DNA of 64,000 nucleotides from the sequence record MW883059. One strand, written 5' to 3'. The notes under the pieces were generated by a model that had not been told where the DNA came from, searched no databases, and saw nothing but the letters and a program-made list of their open reading frames with translations. Origin of the DNA: Escherichia phage vB_EcoM_SYGD1. Shown here one piece after another: positions 5,164 to 48,907 of this stretch. Both the position numbers and the translations under genes were made by a program. Every line of letters begins with the position of its first letter. The stretch's first letter is position 1.

Positions 5164-6729
5164 TTAGATACCTTTAACATATACACGGCGGAAGTAAGCG
5201 TTTTTACCAAGGCTATTCAGAATAGAAGGCATACCGCTTTGAATGCGAGAAGCCGGAGCCTGAGCAGCGGATTCTGCAAATGGGTTGATACCGATACCGT
5301 AACGAGTTTTGAATCCCATTACTGGTTGGAAGTTCTTCGGATCGGAACCACGCAGCGGAGTCAGAGCTACATATGGAGCATAGTAAATACCAGCATCCAT
5401 TTCGTTCGGACCTTTATAACCTACGGTGAAATAATCCTGTTTAGCATACTGGTCGATATATACACGGTATTTACCACCCAGAACACCAGCAAATACTGAC
5501 TTGGTAGTATCAGTGTTAAAGCCAGTAGCCAGACCTTGTGCAGCATAAGAAATGCCGGTATCAACTGAAGCCAGAACGTTAACTACGTTACGGGAAGCGA
5601 TAATGAAGTTACCTTCACCACGACCGGTCTGACGAGCAATTTCAACTGCTTCTTTGTCAATCTGGAACAACAGAGCTTTAAAGGATTCACCTGCCCAGCG
5701 AGCACCACGAATATCGATTGGGTCCTGGAAGTCAAATACACCAGCTTTAGAACCCGGAGTCAGGGTCATACCAGATTTACCAACCTGAGCGGAGTAGTTA
5801 ATCCAATCAACAACTTCGCGGTTGATTTCCAGCATAATTTCGGTAGCCAGAATACCAGACAGTTCAGCATCAGCATCCATACCGTGAACAGCGCGAAGGT
5901 CTTGTGCTAATTCAATAGAGTAAGCAGCTTTCAGCTGACGAGATTTAGCTTCGATAACTTGCTTATCGATACGGAAGCCCATTTCATTCCATGGGTTATC
6001 GGTAGAACCGTTAAAACCTTCCTGAAGTTCAGCGATAGAAGTAGCCATACCTTCAGCGATTTCTACCAATACGCCAGCTTCCATTTGTTTCTTAATTTCA
6101 GCATCTAATTTAGCTGCGTCAGATGCGCCTGAATCAATTTGTTTAACTTCTGTAGCTTGCAGATATACTGTACCAGTTTCCTGGAAGAAGTGAGTGTAAA
6201 TAGTTCCGACTTCAAGAGTATCACTTGCTTTCAAAGCAGCGAATTTCTTAGCAGCACCCTGACCAGAGAACATTGCATCTGGACCATACATTGGGTGGAA
6301 TGCTTCTTTAGCACCGGCAGCGATTGGGTCTTTACCATATACTGCGCGCAGTGCGAATACCTGGCCAGTCGGGCTGTTCATTGGCTGAACACCACAAATA
6401 TCGAAAGCAATCAGGTTAGGAATAGCACGACGTACCATACCCATAACAGCTGGGCCAATCTGAGTTACTGCTCCAGAAGTCTGACCTGCAGCGATGTTGG
6501 TAGCATTGTAACCGTGGTCACCACCGATTTCAGCTTCTGTTAAGAAAGAACCGAATGCCTGAGCAATTTTTTCGTCTTTATATTCCGGAGCTGTCTGGAA
6601 ATCTTTTTCCTGGTTTTCAAAGATTTTAGCGATAATCGCTTGTTTGCTATTAGCAATTTCCGGTAAACCTTCACCTTCCAGTAATGGCTTCCATTTGTTC
6701 AAAAGTTCAGCTTTAGTTTTGATAGTCAT
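5164..6729 (-). CDS. 23: gp23 major capsid protein
   Basis: ORF track 521 aa; N-terminus MTIKTKAELLNKWKPLLEGEG and length as T4 gp23. Confidence 0.95.
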   Translation of the reverse strand: MTIKTKAELLNKWKPLLEGEGLPEIANSKQAIIAKIFENQEKDFQTAPEYKDEKIAQAFGSFLTEAEIGGDHGYNATNIAAGQTSGAVTQIGPAVMGMVRRAIPNLIAFDICGVQPMNSPTGQVFALRAVYGKDPIAAGAKEAFHPMYGPDAMFSGQGAAKKFAALKASDTLEVGTIYTHFFQETGTVYLQATEVKQIDSGASDAAKLDAEIKKQMEAGVLVEIAEGMATSIAELQEGFNGSTDNPWNEMGFRIDKQVIEAKSRQLKAAYSIELAQDLRAVHGMDADAELSGILATEIMLEINREVVDWINYSAQVGKSGMTLTPGSKAGVFDFQDPIDIRGARWAGESFKALLFQIDKEAVEIARQTGRGEGNFIIASRNVVNVLASVDTGISYAAQGLATGFNTDTTKSVFAGVLGGKYRVYIDQYAKQDYFTVGYKGPNEMDAGIYYAPYVALTPLRGSDPKNFQPVMGFKTRYGIGINPFAESAAQAPASRIQSGMPSILNSLGKNAYFRRVYVKGI

Positions 6730-20184: not shown

Positions 20185-21741
20185 TTAGTAATGAATTTTA
20201 ATAATATAGTTTAATGATATATTCCATGGTCTAGTTTCATATCCGATAAGTCCTTCACGGTTTAACGTGCCAAACGAGTCACGAGCACCACCCATTTCAA
20301 ATCCGTCGTTAGTAAAGAACAAATGGTTGTCCCAGTCGGCGCTTTTACCATTGCCTAAATATCCATTGCCATTAGATGCGCCAAACGGTGCATAACCTCT
20401 GTTATTTCCATTTTCCCCCCAGGCACCAGCATGTTTATGGTATGACATTTGTTGTGCCTGAACACCGCCAACATGCATTCCGTCACATCCTACACCAAGT
20501 CTATCCTTCCCGTAGCCATCTTGTCCTCGTTGATTTAAAATATGACTGCCGGTACCAGCTCCTCTAACAAAAAGACCTCGCATATCAGGAATACCAGGAT
20601 TATTCCAATCACCGCCAAATCTTGTTCCAACCACATTTCGATAGTCCGGAAATTGGTCTCCAGAAATGGTCCCACCATGACATAAAACCCAACCTGGAGG
20701 AGCGCTATCACCTGCGAACATTTGAATTGTTCCAACAGGAACACGTTCAGATGCATATCTCTCTGTTGCAACTGGCTGGTCACCGTTTTTCCACATTCCG
20801 CCGCGCGACCAAATTCCGTTTGCTGTAAGATGGTCTAAATTTAAAGAACCATTAATAGTTTGTCCACCACGAGTATTAATTACATCTGCGTTCCATGCTA
20901 ATGCACCAGAGCTATCACCTTCAGGGGCAATACCGGCTTGCGTCGTTAATTTTACCACCCCACGCATAGAACCAGTAGCTCCTCGACCATTTAGTGTTTC
21001 ACCTGTTACTGCAACATCTCCTAAATTACTGTTAATTTCCGATTGTGTCCCTAAACGTATAACACCCTTATATTCTTGTGTTGCAACAGAATTCATAAAG
21101 GTATACGGAGAAATTGCATATCCTTCGCGGAGAGTTCCTTGACGAATTTGTGCAACAGTAGATAATTGAACTACTCCTCTCACCGATTCTGTTGCAGTGT
21201 CTTCTGAAGGAGCTATTTGCGAAATTAATTTTATTGCAAGTTTTTGGGTTTTTAGCGGAGTCATCGCAGTAGTATCATCAACTCCAGCCAAAGCTGCAGG
21301 TGTAGATGATATTTTAATAACCCCGTTTGATGACTCAGACGAATATCTATTTTTGAACACATCGTCAGTGTGGTATTTCAGTTTTTGTGGTGTTATTGAT
21401 GAATTATTATCTGAGCCTTTTAATGTTTCTTCATTTGTTGAATAACGCGTTAAACCATATTTAGTTTCAGTAGCATTTGGATACAATAATCTTGTTGCTA
21501 ATGTAGCTGGTGTAACGATTTTAGAATTATTAGTTCCATCTAAAACCTCTTGCTCTGACGCAATCATTGCTATTCCTTTAACTTCCATAGTTGCGTCAGG
21601 AATACCATTTACGCCGATATTACTTATTTTTGATAATGCAGACTGTACTGTCGTAACAGTGCCAGGAAAATTCGATCCAGTAGGATCGAATTTAACATAT
21701 TTTGATTCATTTGATACGTGCTGATATGTATTGTTACTCAT
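20185..21741 (-). CDS. 12: gp12 short tail fibre
   Basis: ORF track 518 aa; synteny; T4 gp12-like repeats. Confidence 0.85.
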
Positions 21742-40905: not shown

Positions 40906-40978
40906 TGGGAATTAGCCAAGTTGGTAAGGCATAGCACTTTGACTGCTAGATGCAAAGGTTCGAGTCCTTTATTCCCAG
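40906..40978 (+). tRNA. tRNA-Gln (anticodon UUG)
   Basis: hand-folded cloverleaf: acceptor tgggaat/attccca, anticodon loop ctTTGac, T-arm aaagg-ttcgagt-ccttt; no encoded CCA. Confidence 0.8.
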
Positions 40979-40979
40979 C

Positions 40980-41066
40980 GCGAGAATGGTCAAATTGGTA
41001 AAGGCACAGCACTTAAAATGCTGCGGAATGATTTCCTTGTGGGTTCGAGTCCCACTTCTCGTACCA
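40980..41066 (+). tRNA. tRNA-Leu (anticodon UAA), long variable arm, CCA encoded
   Basis: acceptor gcgagaa/ttctcgt, anticodon loop ctTAAaa, T-arm gtggg-ttcgagt-cccac, 3' acca. Confidence 0.8.
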
Positions 41067-41072
41067 AAGTTT

Positions 41073-41144
<72 letters not shown>

Positions 41145-41156
41145 AAATTTAATTTA

Positions 41157-41230
41157 CTCCGTGTAGCTCAGTTTGGTAGAGCGTCTGCTTTGGGAGCAGA
41201 ATGTCACAGGTTCAAATCCTGCCGCGGAGA
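41157..41230 (+). tRNA. tRNA-Pro (anticodon UGG)
   Basis: acceptor ctccgtg/cgcggag, anticodon loop ttTGGga. Confidence 0.75.
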
Positions 41231-41232
41231 CT

Positions 41233-41319
41233 GGAGGCGTGGCAGAGTGGTTTAATGCACCGGTCTTGAAAACCGGCAGTCGCTCCGGTGACTCATAGGT
41301 TCAAATCCTATCGCCTCCG
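41233..41319 (+). tRNA. tRNA-Ser (anticodon UGA), long variable arm
   Basis: acceptor ggaggcg/cgcctcc, anticodon loop ctTGAaa, T-arm atagg-ttcaaat-cctat. Confidence 0.8.
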
Positions 41320-41326
41320 TAATTTC

Positions 41327-41399
41327 GCTGATTTAGCTCAGTAGGTAGAGCACCTCACTTGTAATGAGGATGTCGGCGGTTCGATTCCGTCAATCAGCA
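41327..41399 (+). tRNA. tRNA-Thr (anticodon UGU)
   Basis: acceptor gctgatt/aatcagc, anticodon loop ctTGTaa. Confidence 0.8.
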
Positions 41400-41405
41400 T
41401 ATCAA

Positions 41406-41477
41406 GGCCCTGTAGCTGGAAGGTTCAAGCAAGCGACTCATAATCGCCAGATGGTGGTTCAATTCCACCCAGGGCCA
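41406..41477 (+). tRNA. tRNA with CAU anticodon (T4 tRNA-Ile homolog; Met by anticodon alone)
   Basis: acceptor ggccctg/cagggcc, anticodon loop ctCATaa, T-arm ggtgg-ttcaatt-ccacc. Confidence 0.7.
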
Positions 41478-41518
41478 TATTTTGGGAACATAAATACTCT
41501 TAGAAATAGGAGATATTT

Positions 41519-42184
41519 ATGTTCCATTACACTTATAAAATAACAAATAAAATTAATAATAAAATCTATATAGGCGCTCATTCTACCGAAAATTTAGATG
41601 ATGGATATATGGGTTCTGGTAAATTATTAAAAAGAGCCCAAGACAAGTATGGTATAGAAAATTTCTCTAAAGAAATATTAGAGTTCTTTGACGATAAAAC
41701 CTCTATGTTTGAGTCAGAAAAGAATATTGTGACTGAAGAGTTTTTAAAGCGCCCTGATGTTTATAATTTGAAATTAGGTGGTGAAGGTGGTTGGGACCAT
41801 TTAAACACTAAAGAATATTTGGATAAAAAGAAAGAAGCTTCCTTAAAAGGGGCTGCTGCTTTTAAAACCAGATTTGAGAACGACCCAGACCTTAAAGAAA
41901 AATATCGTAAAATGGGTTCAGAAAGGTTTAAACAGCTTTGGGATAATCCTAAGTATAGAGAGAAATTTTTAAATATTAAATCTTTATTGGGTAAGACCCA
42001 TACTCCTGAAACTATTAATAAAATGAAAGAATCTCACGCCAGAAATAAACACCAACAGGGCGAAAAGAATTCCCAATTTGGTATGATGTGGATTCATTCA
42101 TTAGATGAAAAAGTTTCTAAACGTATTAAGAAAACTGACCCAATTCCAGAAGGATGGTTTAAAGGTCGAAAAATGAAATTTTAA
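41519..42184 (+). CDS. segB: GIY-YIG homing endonuclease embedded in the tRNA cluster (SegB-like)
   Basis: ORF track 221 aa; TYKITN ... KIYIGAH GIY-YIG motifs; position between tRNA subclusters as T4 segB. Confidence 0.75.
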   Translation: MFHYTYKITNKINNKIYIGAHSTENLDDGYMGSGKLLKRAQDKYGIENFSKEILEFFDDKTSMFESEKNIVTEEFLKRPDVYNLKLGGEGGWDHLNTKEYLDKKKEASLKGAAAFKTRFENDPDLKEKYRKMGSERFKQLWDNPKYREKFLNIKSLLGKTHTPETINKMKESHARNKHQQGEKNSQFGMMWIHSLDEKVSKRIKKTDPIPEGWFKGRKMKF

Positions 42185-42187
42185 TTA

Positions 42188-42264
<77 letters not shown>

Positions 42265-46887: not shown

Positions 46888-47304
46888 ATGACTCGTATTA
46901 ATTTGACTTTAGTATCTGAACTTGCTGATCAACATTTAATCGCAGAATACCGTGAACTGCCGCGTGTTTTTGGTATAGTTCGTAAACATGTTGCAAATGG
47001 TAAGCGGGTTAAAGATTTTAAAATATCTTCCGAGTTTATTTTAGGTTCTGGTCATGTCACGTTCTTTTACGATAAGTTAGAATTTTTGCGAAAGCGTCAA
47101 TCAGACATTATAACGGAATGCTTAAAACGCGGATTCAGTATAAAAGATACTGAAGTTCCTGACATCAGTGATATTCCAGTAGAATGGAAAAATGATTATA
47201 ATCCATGCAAATCAGCTATTAGGTTGAGTCAACAACGACTCGATGAAAAAATTTTAATGAAGCCACACTGGTACAAGTATTACGGCAAAAATATTTACAT
47301 TTAA
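46888..47304 (+). CDS. denV: endonuclease V, pyrimidine dimer DNA glycosylase
   Basis: ORF track 138 aa; [17 protein letters not shown]...WYKYYGK recognisable as T4 DenV. Confidence 0.9.
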
Positions 47305-47401: not shown

Positions 47402-47989
47402 ATGGACAATTCATGCGCCACGGAATGGCCCAAATTTAGAGATAACAAAATGAGAACATTTTTAACTGGTCCTTATCTATCCCTGATGAATGCTTTTACA
47501 CACCATTCTGATGCTAGAGTAGAAGAAATTTGTAAAAACGAATATATCCTGCCATTTGAAGACTTACTTAAGCAGTATTGCACACTTCGACTAGATGGTG
47601 GACGTCAATCCGGTAAATCAATTGCAGTAACTAATTTTGCCGCTAATTGGTTGTATGACGGTGGAACAGTTATTGTTCTTTCTAATACTTCAGCTTATGC
47701 TAAAATTTCTGCAGATAACATCAAAAAGGAATTTTCGCGTTATTCTAATGATGATATACGTTTTCGTTTATTTACTGATTCTGTGCGTAGTTTTATTGGT
47801 AATAAAGGAAGCAAGTTCAGAGGTTTATCTCTTTCGCGAATTTTATATATAATTGATGAGCCTGTCAAATCTCCTGATATGGATAAGATTTATGATGCTC
47901 ATATTGACACTGTACAGTACTGCTGCAATAGTAAATGTTGCATTGGTGGTATTACTCGTCCTCAATTTTTTGTGATTGGAATGCAATGA
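47402..47989 (+). CDS. small P-loop NTPase-like protein
   Basis: ORF track 195 aa; Walker A-like GGRQSGKS and Walker B-like ILYIIDE. Confidence 0.5.
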   Translation: MDNSCATEWPKFRDNKMRTFLTGPYLSLMNAFTHHSDARVEEICKNEYILPFEDLLKQYCTLRLDGGRQSGKSIAVTNFAANWLYDGGTVIVLSNTSAYAKISADNIKKEFSRYSNDDIRFRLFTDSVRSFIGNKGSKFRGLSLSRILYIIDEPVKSPDMDKIYDAHIDTVQYCCNSKCCIGGITRPQFFVIGMQ

Positions 47990-48315
47990 TGACAGACACG
48001 CAACTTTTCGAATATCTTTATTTTTCGCCAAAAACTATTAAAAATAAATTGGTGAATCATTTTGAAATTTTGGCAAATAACAACGTCTTGAGCGAATTTT
48101 ATCCTAAGCAATACAAATTACAAAAAGGCGTATTCAAAGGATGCAGAGTTTTGTGCACTGCTCCTAATGCAAGATTAATGAATAAAATTCCATATTTTAC
48201 CATGGAATTTATTGATGGGCCTTTTAAAGGACTAATTACCCAAAGTTTAATGGCATATGATTCTGAGCCATTTTTAATTAAAGAGCAATCTTGGATAAAT
48301 TTATTTTCTAATTGA
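47986..48315 (+). CDS. hypothetical protein
   Basis: ORF track 47935; ATG at 47986 overlapping the preceding stop (ATGATGA). Confidence 0.45.
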
Positions 48316-48323
48316 GAGGTTAT

Positions 48324-48686
48324 ATGAAAGCATATCAAATTCTTGAAGGCACGCATAAAGGTACTATTTATTTTGAAGACGGTATTCAAGCACGAATTAT
48401 TGTCTCTAAAACCTTTAAAGAGGACTCTTTTGTAGACCCAGAAATTTTCTATGGTTTGCATGCCCGTGAAATTGAAATTGAAACACAACCTACAGTTAAA
48501 ATTGAAGGTGGTCAACACCTGAACGTTAACGTTCTGCGTCGTGAAACTCTGGAAGATGCAGTTAAGCATCCGGAAAAATATCCGCAGCTGACCATCCGTG
48601 TATCCGGTTATGCAGTTCGCTTTAACTCTCTGACTCCGGAACAGCAGCGCGACGTTATCGCTCGTACCTTTACCGAGAGTCTGTAA
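48324..48686 (+). CDS. autonomous glycyl radical cofactor GrcA/YfiD-like protein
   Basis: ORF track 48312; ATG at 48324 after SD gagagg; C-terminal glycyl-radical signature [25 protein letters not shown]. Confidence 0.75.
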
Positions 48687-48907
48687 TGGCAAAGATAATT
48701 ATTGAAGGTTCTAAAGATGTGCTAAATGCTTTCGCCGAGTGGTTTAGTAATTCAGGCGAACAGCAATTTAATGAAGCGTGGAACATGGGTGATATTAGTG
48801 GAATTTATCCTACGACAGAAATTTCTGTTCAGGGATATGGCATTCATGAACCTATTCGTTTAGTTGAATATGATTTATGTACTGGTGAGGAAGTAGAATA
48901 TGATTGA
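48686..48907 (+). CDS. hypothetical protein
   Basis: ORF track 73 aa; TAATG coupling. Confidence 0.45.
   Translation: MAKIIIEGSKDVLNAFAEWFSNSGEQQFNEAWNMGDISGIYPTTEISVQGYGIHEPIRLVEYDLCTGEEVEYD

Follow-up and report, generated by a model that had tools for sequence, protein, structure and literature searches.

Radical domain of a GrcA-type spare-part gene in T-even phages matches host grcA and was probably overwritten repeatedly by gene conversion

The psbA and psbD genes of cyanophages (Zeidner 2005; Sullivan 2006, PMC1484495) are host-derived metabolic genes in lytic T4-like phages. Their GC (guanine plus cytosine) content is patchy, segments have been exchanged with the host genes, and the exchange is limited by host range (PMC1484495). 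The vs.6 gene of T4-type phages is likewise a host-derived metabolic gene in a lytic T4-like phage. Here we describe vs.6 in Escherichia phage vB_EcoM_SYGD1 (sequence record MW883059), of which a stretch of 64,000 nucleotides (nt), referred to below as the window, was analysed. The 3' part of this GrcA-like gene, which codes for the glycyl radical domain, is E. coli grcA sequence. Both of its junctions lie inside the gene, the transfer ran from host to phage, and across related phages several donor alleles and donor species have contributed independently. These results suggest that the radical domain of a GrcA-type spare-part gene has probably been overwritten again and again by host grcA through gene conversion.

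The vs.6 gene and its biochemical role are already known. According to the accessible text of PMC8683613, which summarises Wagner 2001, the T4 product Y06I receives its radical from the activating enzyme of pyruvate formate-lyase (PFL-AE) and rescues cleaved pyruvate formate-lyase (PFL); experimental validation as a spare part exists for two proteins, Y06I and YfiD. The same text describes residues 1-60 of YfiD/GrcA as disordered and as an aid to binding and activation, and residues 61-127 as folding like PFL 693-759 and bearing the radical glycine (PMC8683613).

The nucleotide alignment with host grcA, which an earlier note on this DNA had named beforehand as the test on which its idea of a host-like 3' half would stand or fall, was strongly positive. 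Positions 48502-48686 agree with the best E. coli grcA at 182/185 positions (98.4%), including a 172-nt exact run, and identity is 95-99% over all 5,426 complete genomes of the E. coli reference collection. When the whole gene was used for a nucleotide search, grcA was matched in every E. coli genome and at query positions 179-363 only; the first 178 nt are identical to E. coli grcA at 83/178 positions (47%). A fragment of pflB or tdcE was considered as the source and rejected. For pflB, whose comparison the earlier note had also proposed, identity is only ~80%, compared with 99-100% for grcA, and pflB is therefore not the donor; tdcE, measured with the segment of phage KPV15, reaches ~77.5%, compared with 98-100% for grcA. 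When all 64 kb of the window were compared by megablast with the 5,426 E. coli genomes, nothing was found beyond this patch and a weak pflB match to the same segment.

Both edges of the patch can be read directly. The left edge is GTTGAAGGTGG, at the start of EGGQHLNV. At the right edge (48674-48686), the phage has ACC GAG AGT where E. coli has ACT GAA AGC, and GAG AGT is also found in RB43/RB16-like phages, which have no recent patch. In relatives such as L004, L007 and EC.W14-2, the patch extends to 48676 (175 nt). After the stop codon, E. coli continues with GGCTTAAGTA and the phage with TGGCAAAGAT, and homology to the host locus ends at the end of the gene. Since the last 10-13 nt of the open reading frame (ORF) are phage-type, both junctions lie within the gene.

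The patch also stands apart in composition. Its GC content is 0.49, compared with 0.34 in the 5' half and 0.356 in the window, which corresponds to the 99.3rd percentile among 185-nt windows of the stretch. GC at third codon positions (GC3) is 0.443 in the patch, 0.203 in the 5' half and 0.241 in the 55 long ORFs of the window. The patch has CTG for all six leucines and CCG for all three prolines, codons whose share in the phage background is 7% and 15%, respectively. None of 10,000 re-encodings of the patch peptide in phage codon usage reached the observed GC3. Thus, the 5' half is indeed AT-rich like the rest of the phage, the 3' half uses host-type CTG and CCG codons, and the shift is significant against the phage background, as the earlier note had supposed; the breakpoint it had placed near 48515 is instead at 48502, 13 nt upstream.

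The patch is younger than the rest of the gene, as judged from related phages. Between Tequatrovirus and Mosigvirus (the RB69 group, taken as the phage records at ~93% overall identity), 18-22/178 positions (10-12%) differ in the 5' half and 0-4/175 (0-2%) in the patch (Fisher p 1e-3 to 2e-6), and the 3-kb flanks of vs.6 are ~67% identical. In several members of both genera, the patch is 175/175 identical to E. coli. The 5' half is not unrelated to grcA. The N-terminal 59 residues alone match GrcA 28-66 by BLASTP (E 4e-6, 36% identity over 39 amino acids, aa), and profiles of 17 phage and 12 host N-terminal halves align in hhalign with a probability of 98% (E 3e-13, residues 2-59 against 3-66). 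This phage half is ~36% identical to that of GrcA and 7 residues shorter. Because the N-terminal halves are homologous on their own, the 5' half is an old, AT-adapted grcA copy rather than an unrelated sequence, and "chimeric" would here mean two ages, not two origins. Of the chimeric gene proposed earlier, the host-derived 3' half therefore stands, joined not to an unrelated phage N-terminus but to a diverged grcA homologue. Recent capture and kept identity, which had been offered as alternatives, both seem true together, with repeated re-capture from varied host alleles and species.

A different donor is seen in Jiaodavirus (KPV15, 15882-3-3, Nispero and others). Here a T4-like 5' half is followed by a GC-rich 3' part (0.56 in KPV15) that is 96-98% identical to K. 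pneumoniae grcA and 86-89% identical to that of E. coli. Exact runs with K. pneumoniae grcA measure up to 140 nt (131 in 15882-3-3, 101 in Nispero and 38-44 in Boboto and 311F), compared with 20-38 nt for E. coli grcA. The left junction lies no more than 1-3 nt from that in the window, and the right junction 10-25 nt earlier. This K. pneumoniae patch makes it certain that host-to-phage transfer took place at least twice. Searched against the GenBank phage collection, the E. coli patch is matched at 99% or above by 291 records, at 95-99% by 351, at 90-95% by 2 and at 80-90% by 107, the last band consisting entirely of Klebsiella phages among the matches listed. The K. pneumoniae patch is matched at 95-99% by 106 records, and these too are all Klebsiella phages among the matches listed. 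The GenBank phage matches are bimodal and track the host genus.

K. aerogenes, considered as a separate donor for the phages isolated on it (Boboto and Nispero), gained no clear support: their patches are nearer to K. pneumoniae, and the Boboto patch has many private changes, which do not follow K. aerogenes. H118 (116 kb), a candidate T5-like phage with an E. coli patch, proved to be an incomplete Tequatrovirus record. Some records have features of their own. In GenBank, KPV15 vs.6 (L027:1501-1862) is 362 nt long and frameshifted after about codon 43, and the other Jiaodavirus genes are intact at 363 nt. The grcA gene of K. aerogenes NCTC10006 (LR134122.1, filed in PLSDB) has a 1-nt insertion in an A run that truncates the annotated coding sequence. 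CP125156.1, a K. pneumoniae replicon entered in PLSDB as a "plasmid", measures 5.37 Mb and has ung and grcA arranged as on the chromosome.

Within E. coli-type patches, host alleles can be recognized. Of ten Escherichia single-nucleotide polymorphisms (SNPs) in nt 200-371, eight recur among phages (nine Escherichia alleles and 16 phage genes, all taken from ranked lists), with a hypergeometric P of 8e-7 against all third-position changes; smaller universes give 2e-5 and 5e-3. In Shigella phage SP21535, all four SNPs of a linked E. coli AH02 haplotype, 213G-306A-345A-357T, are present, and in PD112 and EcNP1 three of the four. The divergent AH02 allele has SNPs throughout the gene, and only those in its 3' part are common to phages; the absence of its 5' SNPs from phages again points from host to phage. 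Another phage, L005, carries 303A, in keeping with the 485 E. coli genomes (~9% of 5,426) by which its patch is matched at 99% or above. The haplotype at the right junction (sites 372, 375, 378, 379 and 381) varies by phage, the E. coli state being kept at 375 in T4 and at 378 in EC.W14-2 and L005, as separate tracts ending at different sites would lead one to expect. No simple link between patch allele and isolation host emerged from the few cases available; EP32a, whose isolation host was O157:H7, lacks the O157-type 213G.

The direction of transfer follows from the host genes. E. coli grcA has a GC content of 0.47 in its 5' part and 0.49 in the patch region. It differs from K. pneumoniae grcA by 15.6% and 12.6% in these two parts, and from Salmonella grcA by 15.6% and 16.6%. 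No 5'/3' discontinuity was found in host grcA among nine Escherichia and two K. pneumoniae alleles, and hence no sign of phage-to-host transfer. Being at home in the host genome and alien to that of the phage, the patch was transferred from host to phage.

A weaker third case comes from an oral-metagenome phage contig in IMG/VR (L022:1825-1880), which shares a 56-nt exact run with Haemophilus grcA (metagenome-assembled genomes L140 and L145). Mismatches number 0/56 in the tract and 26/124 upstream (p 4e-5), and five sibling contigs have 6-13/56. This tract may be a short host conversion in a Pasteurellaceae phage.

Full-length GrcA homologues with the same two-part architecture also occur in CC31-like, RB43/RB16-like, KP15-like, T5-like (Demerecviridae) and jumbo phages. 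No recent host patch was found in those groups, in which the tail is 65-84% identical in nt to any of 83 host grcA genes, with exact runs of at most 35 nt. In the T5-like loci L043-L069 and the jumbo phages L026, L028 and L029 (345-357 kb), the GrcA tail is 64-76% identical to host genes. At the protein level, the radical domain agrees at 61/61 residues with E. coli GrcA in the RB43/RB16-like L013-L015 (two residues off in L016 and L017) and at 61/61 with K. pneumoniae GrcA in KP15-like phages; in both groups nt identity is only 81-83%. Across these loci (L013-L019, gene positions 1501-1863), a protein match without a DNA match could stem either from conversions of greater age or from selection to keep the domain matched to the host. 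A general rule of host matching in the protein was rejected: it holds for the RB43/RB16-like and KP15-like phages and fails for Karamvirus (Enterobacter phages), whose domain does not match Enterobacter GrcA. Because of the Karamvirus mismatch, the protein match in the other two groups is a weak hint of selection for a matched domain.

Coordinates of vs.6, its parts and its surroundings are collected in Table 1.

Table 1 Features of the vs.6 locus in the window (positions from the first nucleotide of the 64,000-nt stretch).
Feature	Position	Strand	Basis or remark
vs.6 / Y06I-type gene, 120 aa, autonomous glycyl radical cofactor (GrcA-like)	48324..48686	+	T4 vs.6 position and length
Shine-Dalgarno GAGG, 5 nt before ATG	48315..48318	+	sequence reading, ...TAATTGAGAGGTTATATGAAAG
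5' half of vs.6	48324..48501	+	47% nt identity to E. coli grcA, GC 0.34, GC3 0.20
Host-derived conversion patch (probable), 172 nt = E. coli grcA nt 200-371	48502..48673	+	exact run
GGT codon, Gly95, radical-bearing glycine of RVSGY	48606..48608	+	= GrcA Gly102 / PflB Gly734
Right-junction tail ACC GAG AGT CTG TAA	48674..48686	+	three synonymous phage-type differences, then stop
Downstream ORF at vs.5 position, ATG overlapping vs.6 stop (TAATG)	48686..48907	+	

The stretch belongs to a T4-type phage whose best 10-kb matches are Tequatrovirus genomes (96%), and the gene order is as in T4: vs.7 - vs.6 - vs.5 - ... - regB. The vs.6 ORF starts with the ATG at 48324, and its TAA stop shares bases with the ATG of the next ORF. 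With a Shine-Dalgarno sequence and ATG of its own and unrelated small ORFs on either side, it encodes a stand-alone small protein. The GrcA-like glycyl-radical gene that the earlier note had recognized is thus present: residues 61-120, RVSGY included, are 100% identical to residues 68-127 of E. coli GrcA. The Pfam model PF01228 (Gly_radical) matches residues 60-101 with 67.2 bits (cut-off 22.2), and the top NCBIfam matches are GrcA, GrcA2/3 and formate C-acetyltransferase. The GrcA/YfiD class is defined by TIGR04365 and IPR011140 and by a stand-alone protein of ~14 kDa. A radical domain of the NrdD type (class III ribonucleotide reductase), suggested by Nolan 2006, was rejected, as no NrdD model is among the 12 families with E ≤ 1. 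An Rfam scan in and near the gene gave no structured RNA at E ≤ 1 except a chance match to a frameshift element.

The window protein is identical to T4 Vs.6 (UniProt Y06I) at 118/120 residues, the two differences being T54P and R73H. Two T4 records, NC_000866 and MT984581, themselves differ by one base in vs.6, at nt 218, which is A (His73) in the former and G (Arg73), the host state, in the latter. The activation test with the host PFL-activating enzyme that the earlier note had proposed has, according to PMC8683613, already been carried out for T4 Y06I. Because of the 118/120 identity, the window protein would be expected to function as T4 Y06I does, as a GrcA-like spare part for oxygen-damaged PFL. 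Host PFL would be cleaved by oxygen at Gly734, and the phage protein would dock into the cleaved enzyme. The host activase PflA would then install the radical on Gly95 of the phage protein and PFL activity would return, so that the fermentative energy metabolism of the infected cell could be kept going under microaerobic conditions. The phage-specific N-terminal half may be the counterpart of the disordered part of GrcA that helps binding and activation. The patch codes for GrcA 67/68-124, which lies within the structured domain (61-127), the part entering the PFL active site, and the identical C-terminal 60 residues comprise a beta-strand, the RVSGY glycyl-radical loop and a helix. The C-terminal glycyl radical domain of PflB and TdcE has the same fold and the same RVSGY motif as the phage segment.

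Elsewhere in the window, other GC-rich peaks were considered as host patches and rejected, since the transfer RNA (tRNA) cluster, the major capsid gene and the tail-fibre gene lack an E. coli match. The cluster contains eight tRNA genes at 40906-42264 (Gln, Leu, Gly, Pro, Ser, Thr, Met and Arg), which are the source of the GC peak at 41099-41491. The remaining GC-rich peaks fall within the ORF of the major capsid protein (521 aa; 5164-6729, minus strand) and a tail-fibre-like ORF (518 aa; 20185-21741, minus strand), both without a match to E. coli DNA. Between denV (46888-47304) and a vs.8-like ORF (47402-47989), the segment 47324-47423 (GC 0.44) is 100% identical to the Mosigvirus-like phage L007, and the adjoining 100-nt windows are 47-89% identical to it. 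No Rfam match and no significant fold (z 0.1) were found for this segment.

We consider it likely that vs.6 is a GrcA-type spare-part gene whose radical domain is repeatedly overwritten by host grcA. In the T4 and RB69 genera, E. coli grcA has taken the place of the 3' 172-175 nt, and in Jiaodavirus K. pneumoniae grcA that of the equivalent segment. Such replacement would come about during infection, by non-reciprocal homologous recombination (gene conversion) of the phage gene with the chromosome of the host, presumably through the phage's own recombination system. Tracts can begin and end only where the two genes are alike, the left limit being the first stretch with enough conservation for pairing, which explains why the junctions lie at the start of EGGQHLNV and just before the stop codon. 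After a first event between sequences that are ~80% identical, 175 nt would match perfectly; later events should then be much more frequent, and the patch could be refreshed from whichever host allele the phage meets. Easier later conversion would explain the star-like variation, the sharing of host SNPs and the fixed outer junctions. It is for the recombination machinery, the frequency of exchange, and the choice between selection and mere opportunity as the keeper of the patch that we infer rather than observe.

Several points weigh against this explanation. Donor DNA should be in limited supply, since T-even phages break down the cytosine-containing DNA of the host. The evidence is a comparison of sequences, not of directly observed recombination events, and part of the patch could have spread from phage to phage instead of from host to phage. 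The sharing of host SNPs comes from ranked lists of alleles and phage genes rather than from full populations, and third-position transitions can recur by chance too. No exact donor of the L002 patch was found in the 5,426 E. coli genomes, the best having two mismatches, and some phage variants must thus be new mutations or come from unsampled donors. RB43 and RB16 (E. coli phages) and KP15 (Klebsiella) have no recent patch, at 81-83% nt identity, and conversion is therefore not universal. As to the protein itself, its match to TIGR04365 (154.6 bits, residues 20-120 on profile positions 25-126) does not reach the NCBIfam GrcA equivalog cut-off of 170, because the N-terminal half has diverged.

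The patch might instead go back to a single recent capture in one T-even phage, followed by a phage-to-phage sweep through Tequatrovirus and Mosigvirus, with the host not a recurrent donor. The two genera agree in their left junction and almost agree in their right one, the patch tree is star-shaped and shows few differences, and T-even phages recombine readily in mixed infections. However, the eight of ten sampled Escherichia SNPs and the linked four-SNP haplotype found in phages are beyond a single donor, and the K. pneumoniae patch of Jiaodavirus is a second host-to-phage event. In addition, RB69 (Mosigvirus) is reported, in the accessible text of PMC6024577, to be unable to recombine with T4 or other RB phages, which argues against simple phage-to-phage spread. 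We therefore regard a single capture as unlikely. An ancient single capture frozen purely by purifying selection, whether it acts on protein, codons or an RNA element, is much less probable still. The radical domain is indeed extremely conserved as a protein, as the 61/61 identity of RB43/RB16-like and KP15-like phages with the GrcA of their host genus illustrates, but in these very phages the outcome of long-term protein selection is an nt identity of 81-83%, with ~50% at third positions, not 99-100%. Moreover, at more than 20 synonymous sites coliphages have the E. coli state and Klebsiella phages that of K. pneumoniae, which selection cannot bring about, and the patch follows SNPs within a host species, which is likewise beyond selection. 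The idea that the identity is an artefact of host reads in phage assemblies, or that E. coli received its 3' half from the phage, is hardly credible: although phage preparations contain some host DNA and the identity is unusually perfect, the same junctions are present in more than 640 independent records, the T4 reference included, both lie inside an intact ORF, and host grcA is uniform in composition and divergence across Enterobacteriaceae while the patch is foreign to the composition of the phage.

A further question is whether recurrent conversion, if real, has any adaptive value. It might be a neutral by-product, with vs.6 simply the only segment sufficiently like the host; this is possible, though we do not favour it. 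The E. coli and K. pneumoniae domains are only two residues apart, so that the gain from matching would be small at the protein level; save for the 80% pflB match of the patch itself, the window has no other segment similar enough to E. coli DNA for the idea to be tried on it; and the Karamvirus mismatch with Enterobacter GrcA fits as well. On the other hand, practically every Tequatrovirus and Mosigvirus record has the patch (~642 records at 95% or above, compared with ~648 full-length relatives at 90% or above), the patch has not decayed toward phage composition, and the two further lineages that match the host-genus protein without DNA identity point to selection on the domain. A more far-reaching and equally tentative proposal is that the 3' segment of vs.6 is a continuously refreshed copy of the grcA allele of the current host, recording the recent host lineage, with selection keeping the radical domain matched to the PflA/PflB pair of the host. 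If so, a strictly lytic phage with hypermodified DNA would be evolving in concert with a chromosomal gene of its host.

Repeated overwriting by host grcA, the explanation we prefer, suggests continuing recombination in nature between strictly lytic T-even phages and the chromosome of their host. The donor gene, the donor species, some of the alleles and both junctions are plain from the sequence, and the phage concerned is the best studied of the lytic phages, one that breaks down host DNA and has modified cytosines; this makes host-to-phage homologous recombination testable in the laboratory. Exchange affects precisely the portion of the protein that goes into the PFL active site, and is therefore relevant to how a spare part keeps fitting the enzyme that it mends. 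With frequent conversion, the patch allele could mark a recent host and be usable for host tracing from phage sequence.

Literature searches aimed at the vs.6 mosaic and its repeated overwriting brought up no prior description, although the identity at the amino-acid level may already have been remarked on by Wagner 2001 or in the 2003 T4 genome review. In their accessible text, Nolan 2006 has vs.6 only as a Gly_radical Pfam match, with the mosaic absent, Petrov 2010 does not mention vs.6, and Andorfer 2021 mentions neither the nucleotide mosaic nor its repeated renewal.

The comparison with cyanophage psbA and psbD places these observations. The recombination in those genes and the vs.6 mosaic were both first noticed as patchy GC content (PMC1484495), and vs.6 has the features of a psbA-type mosaic: a host-like segment, intragenic breakpoints, and more than one independent exchange, limited by host range. 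Unlike psbA and psbD, vs.6 carries a single tract whose junctions are both intragenic and coincide with one structural domain. Identity to the donor is 99-100% in vs.6, whereas for psbA and psbD the signal is statistical; the donor species and even alleles can be named, and the exchange recurs in at least two host genera. The recipient phages also differ from those of the psbA/psbD case, having hypermodified DNA and degrading the DNA of their host. Thus, as far as we found, the repeated, host-specific overwriting of vs.6 is a new and unusually clean example of a known process, for which exchange of the psbA type is the closest precedent.

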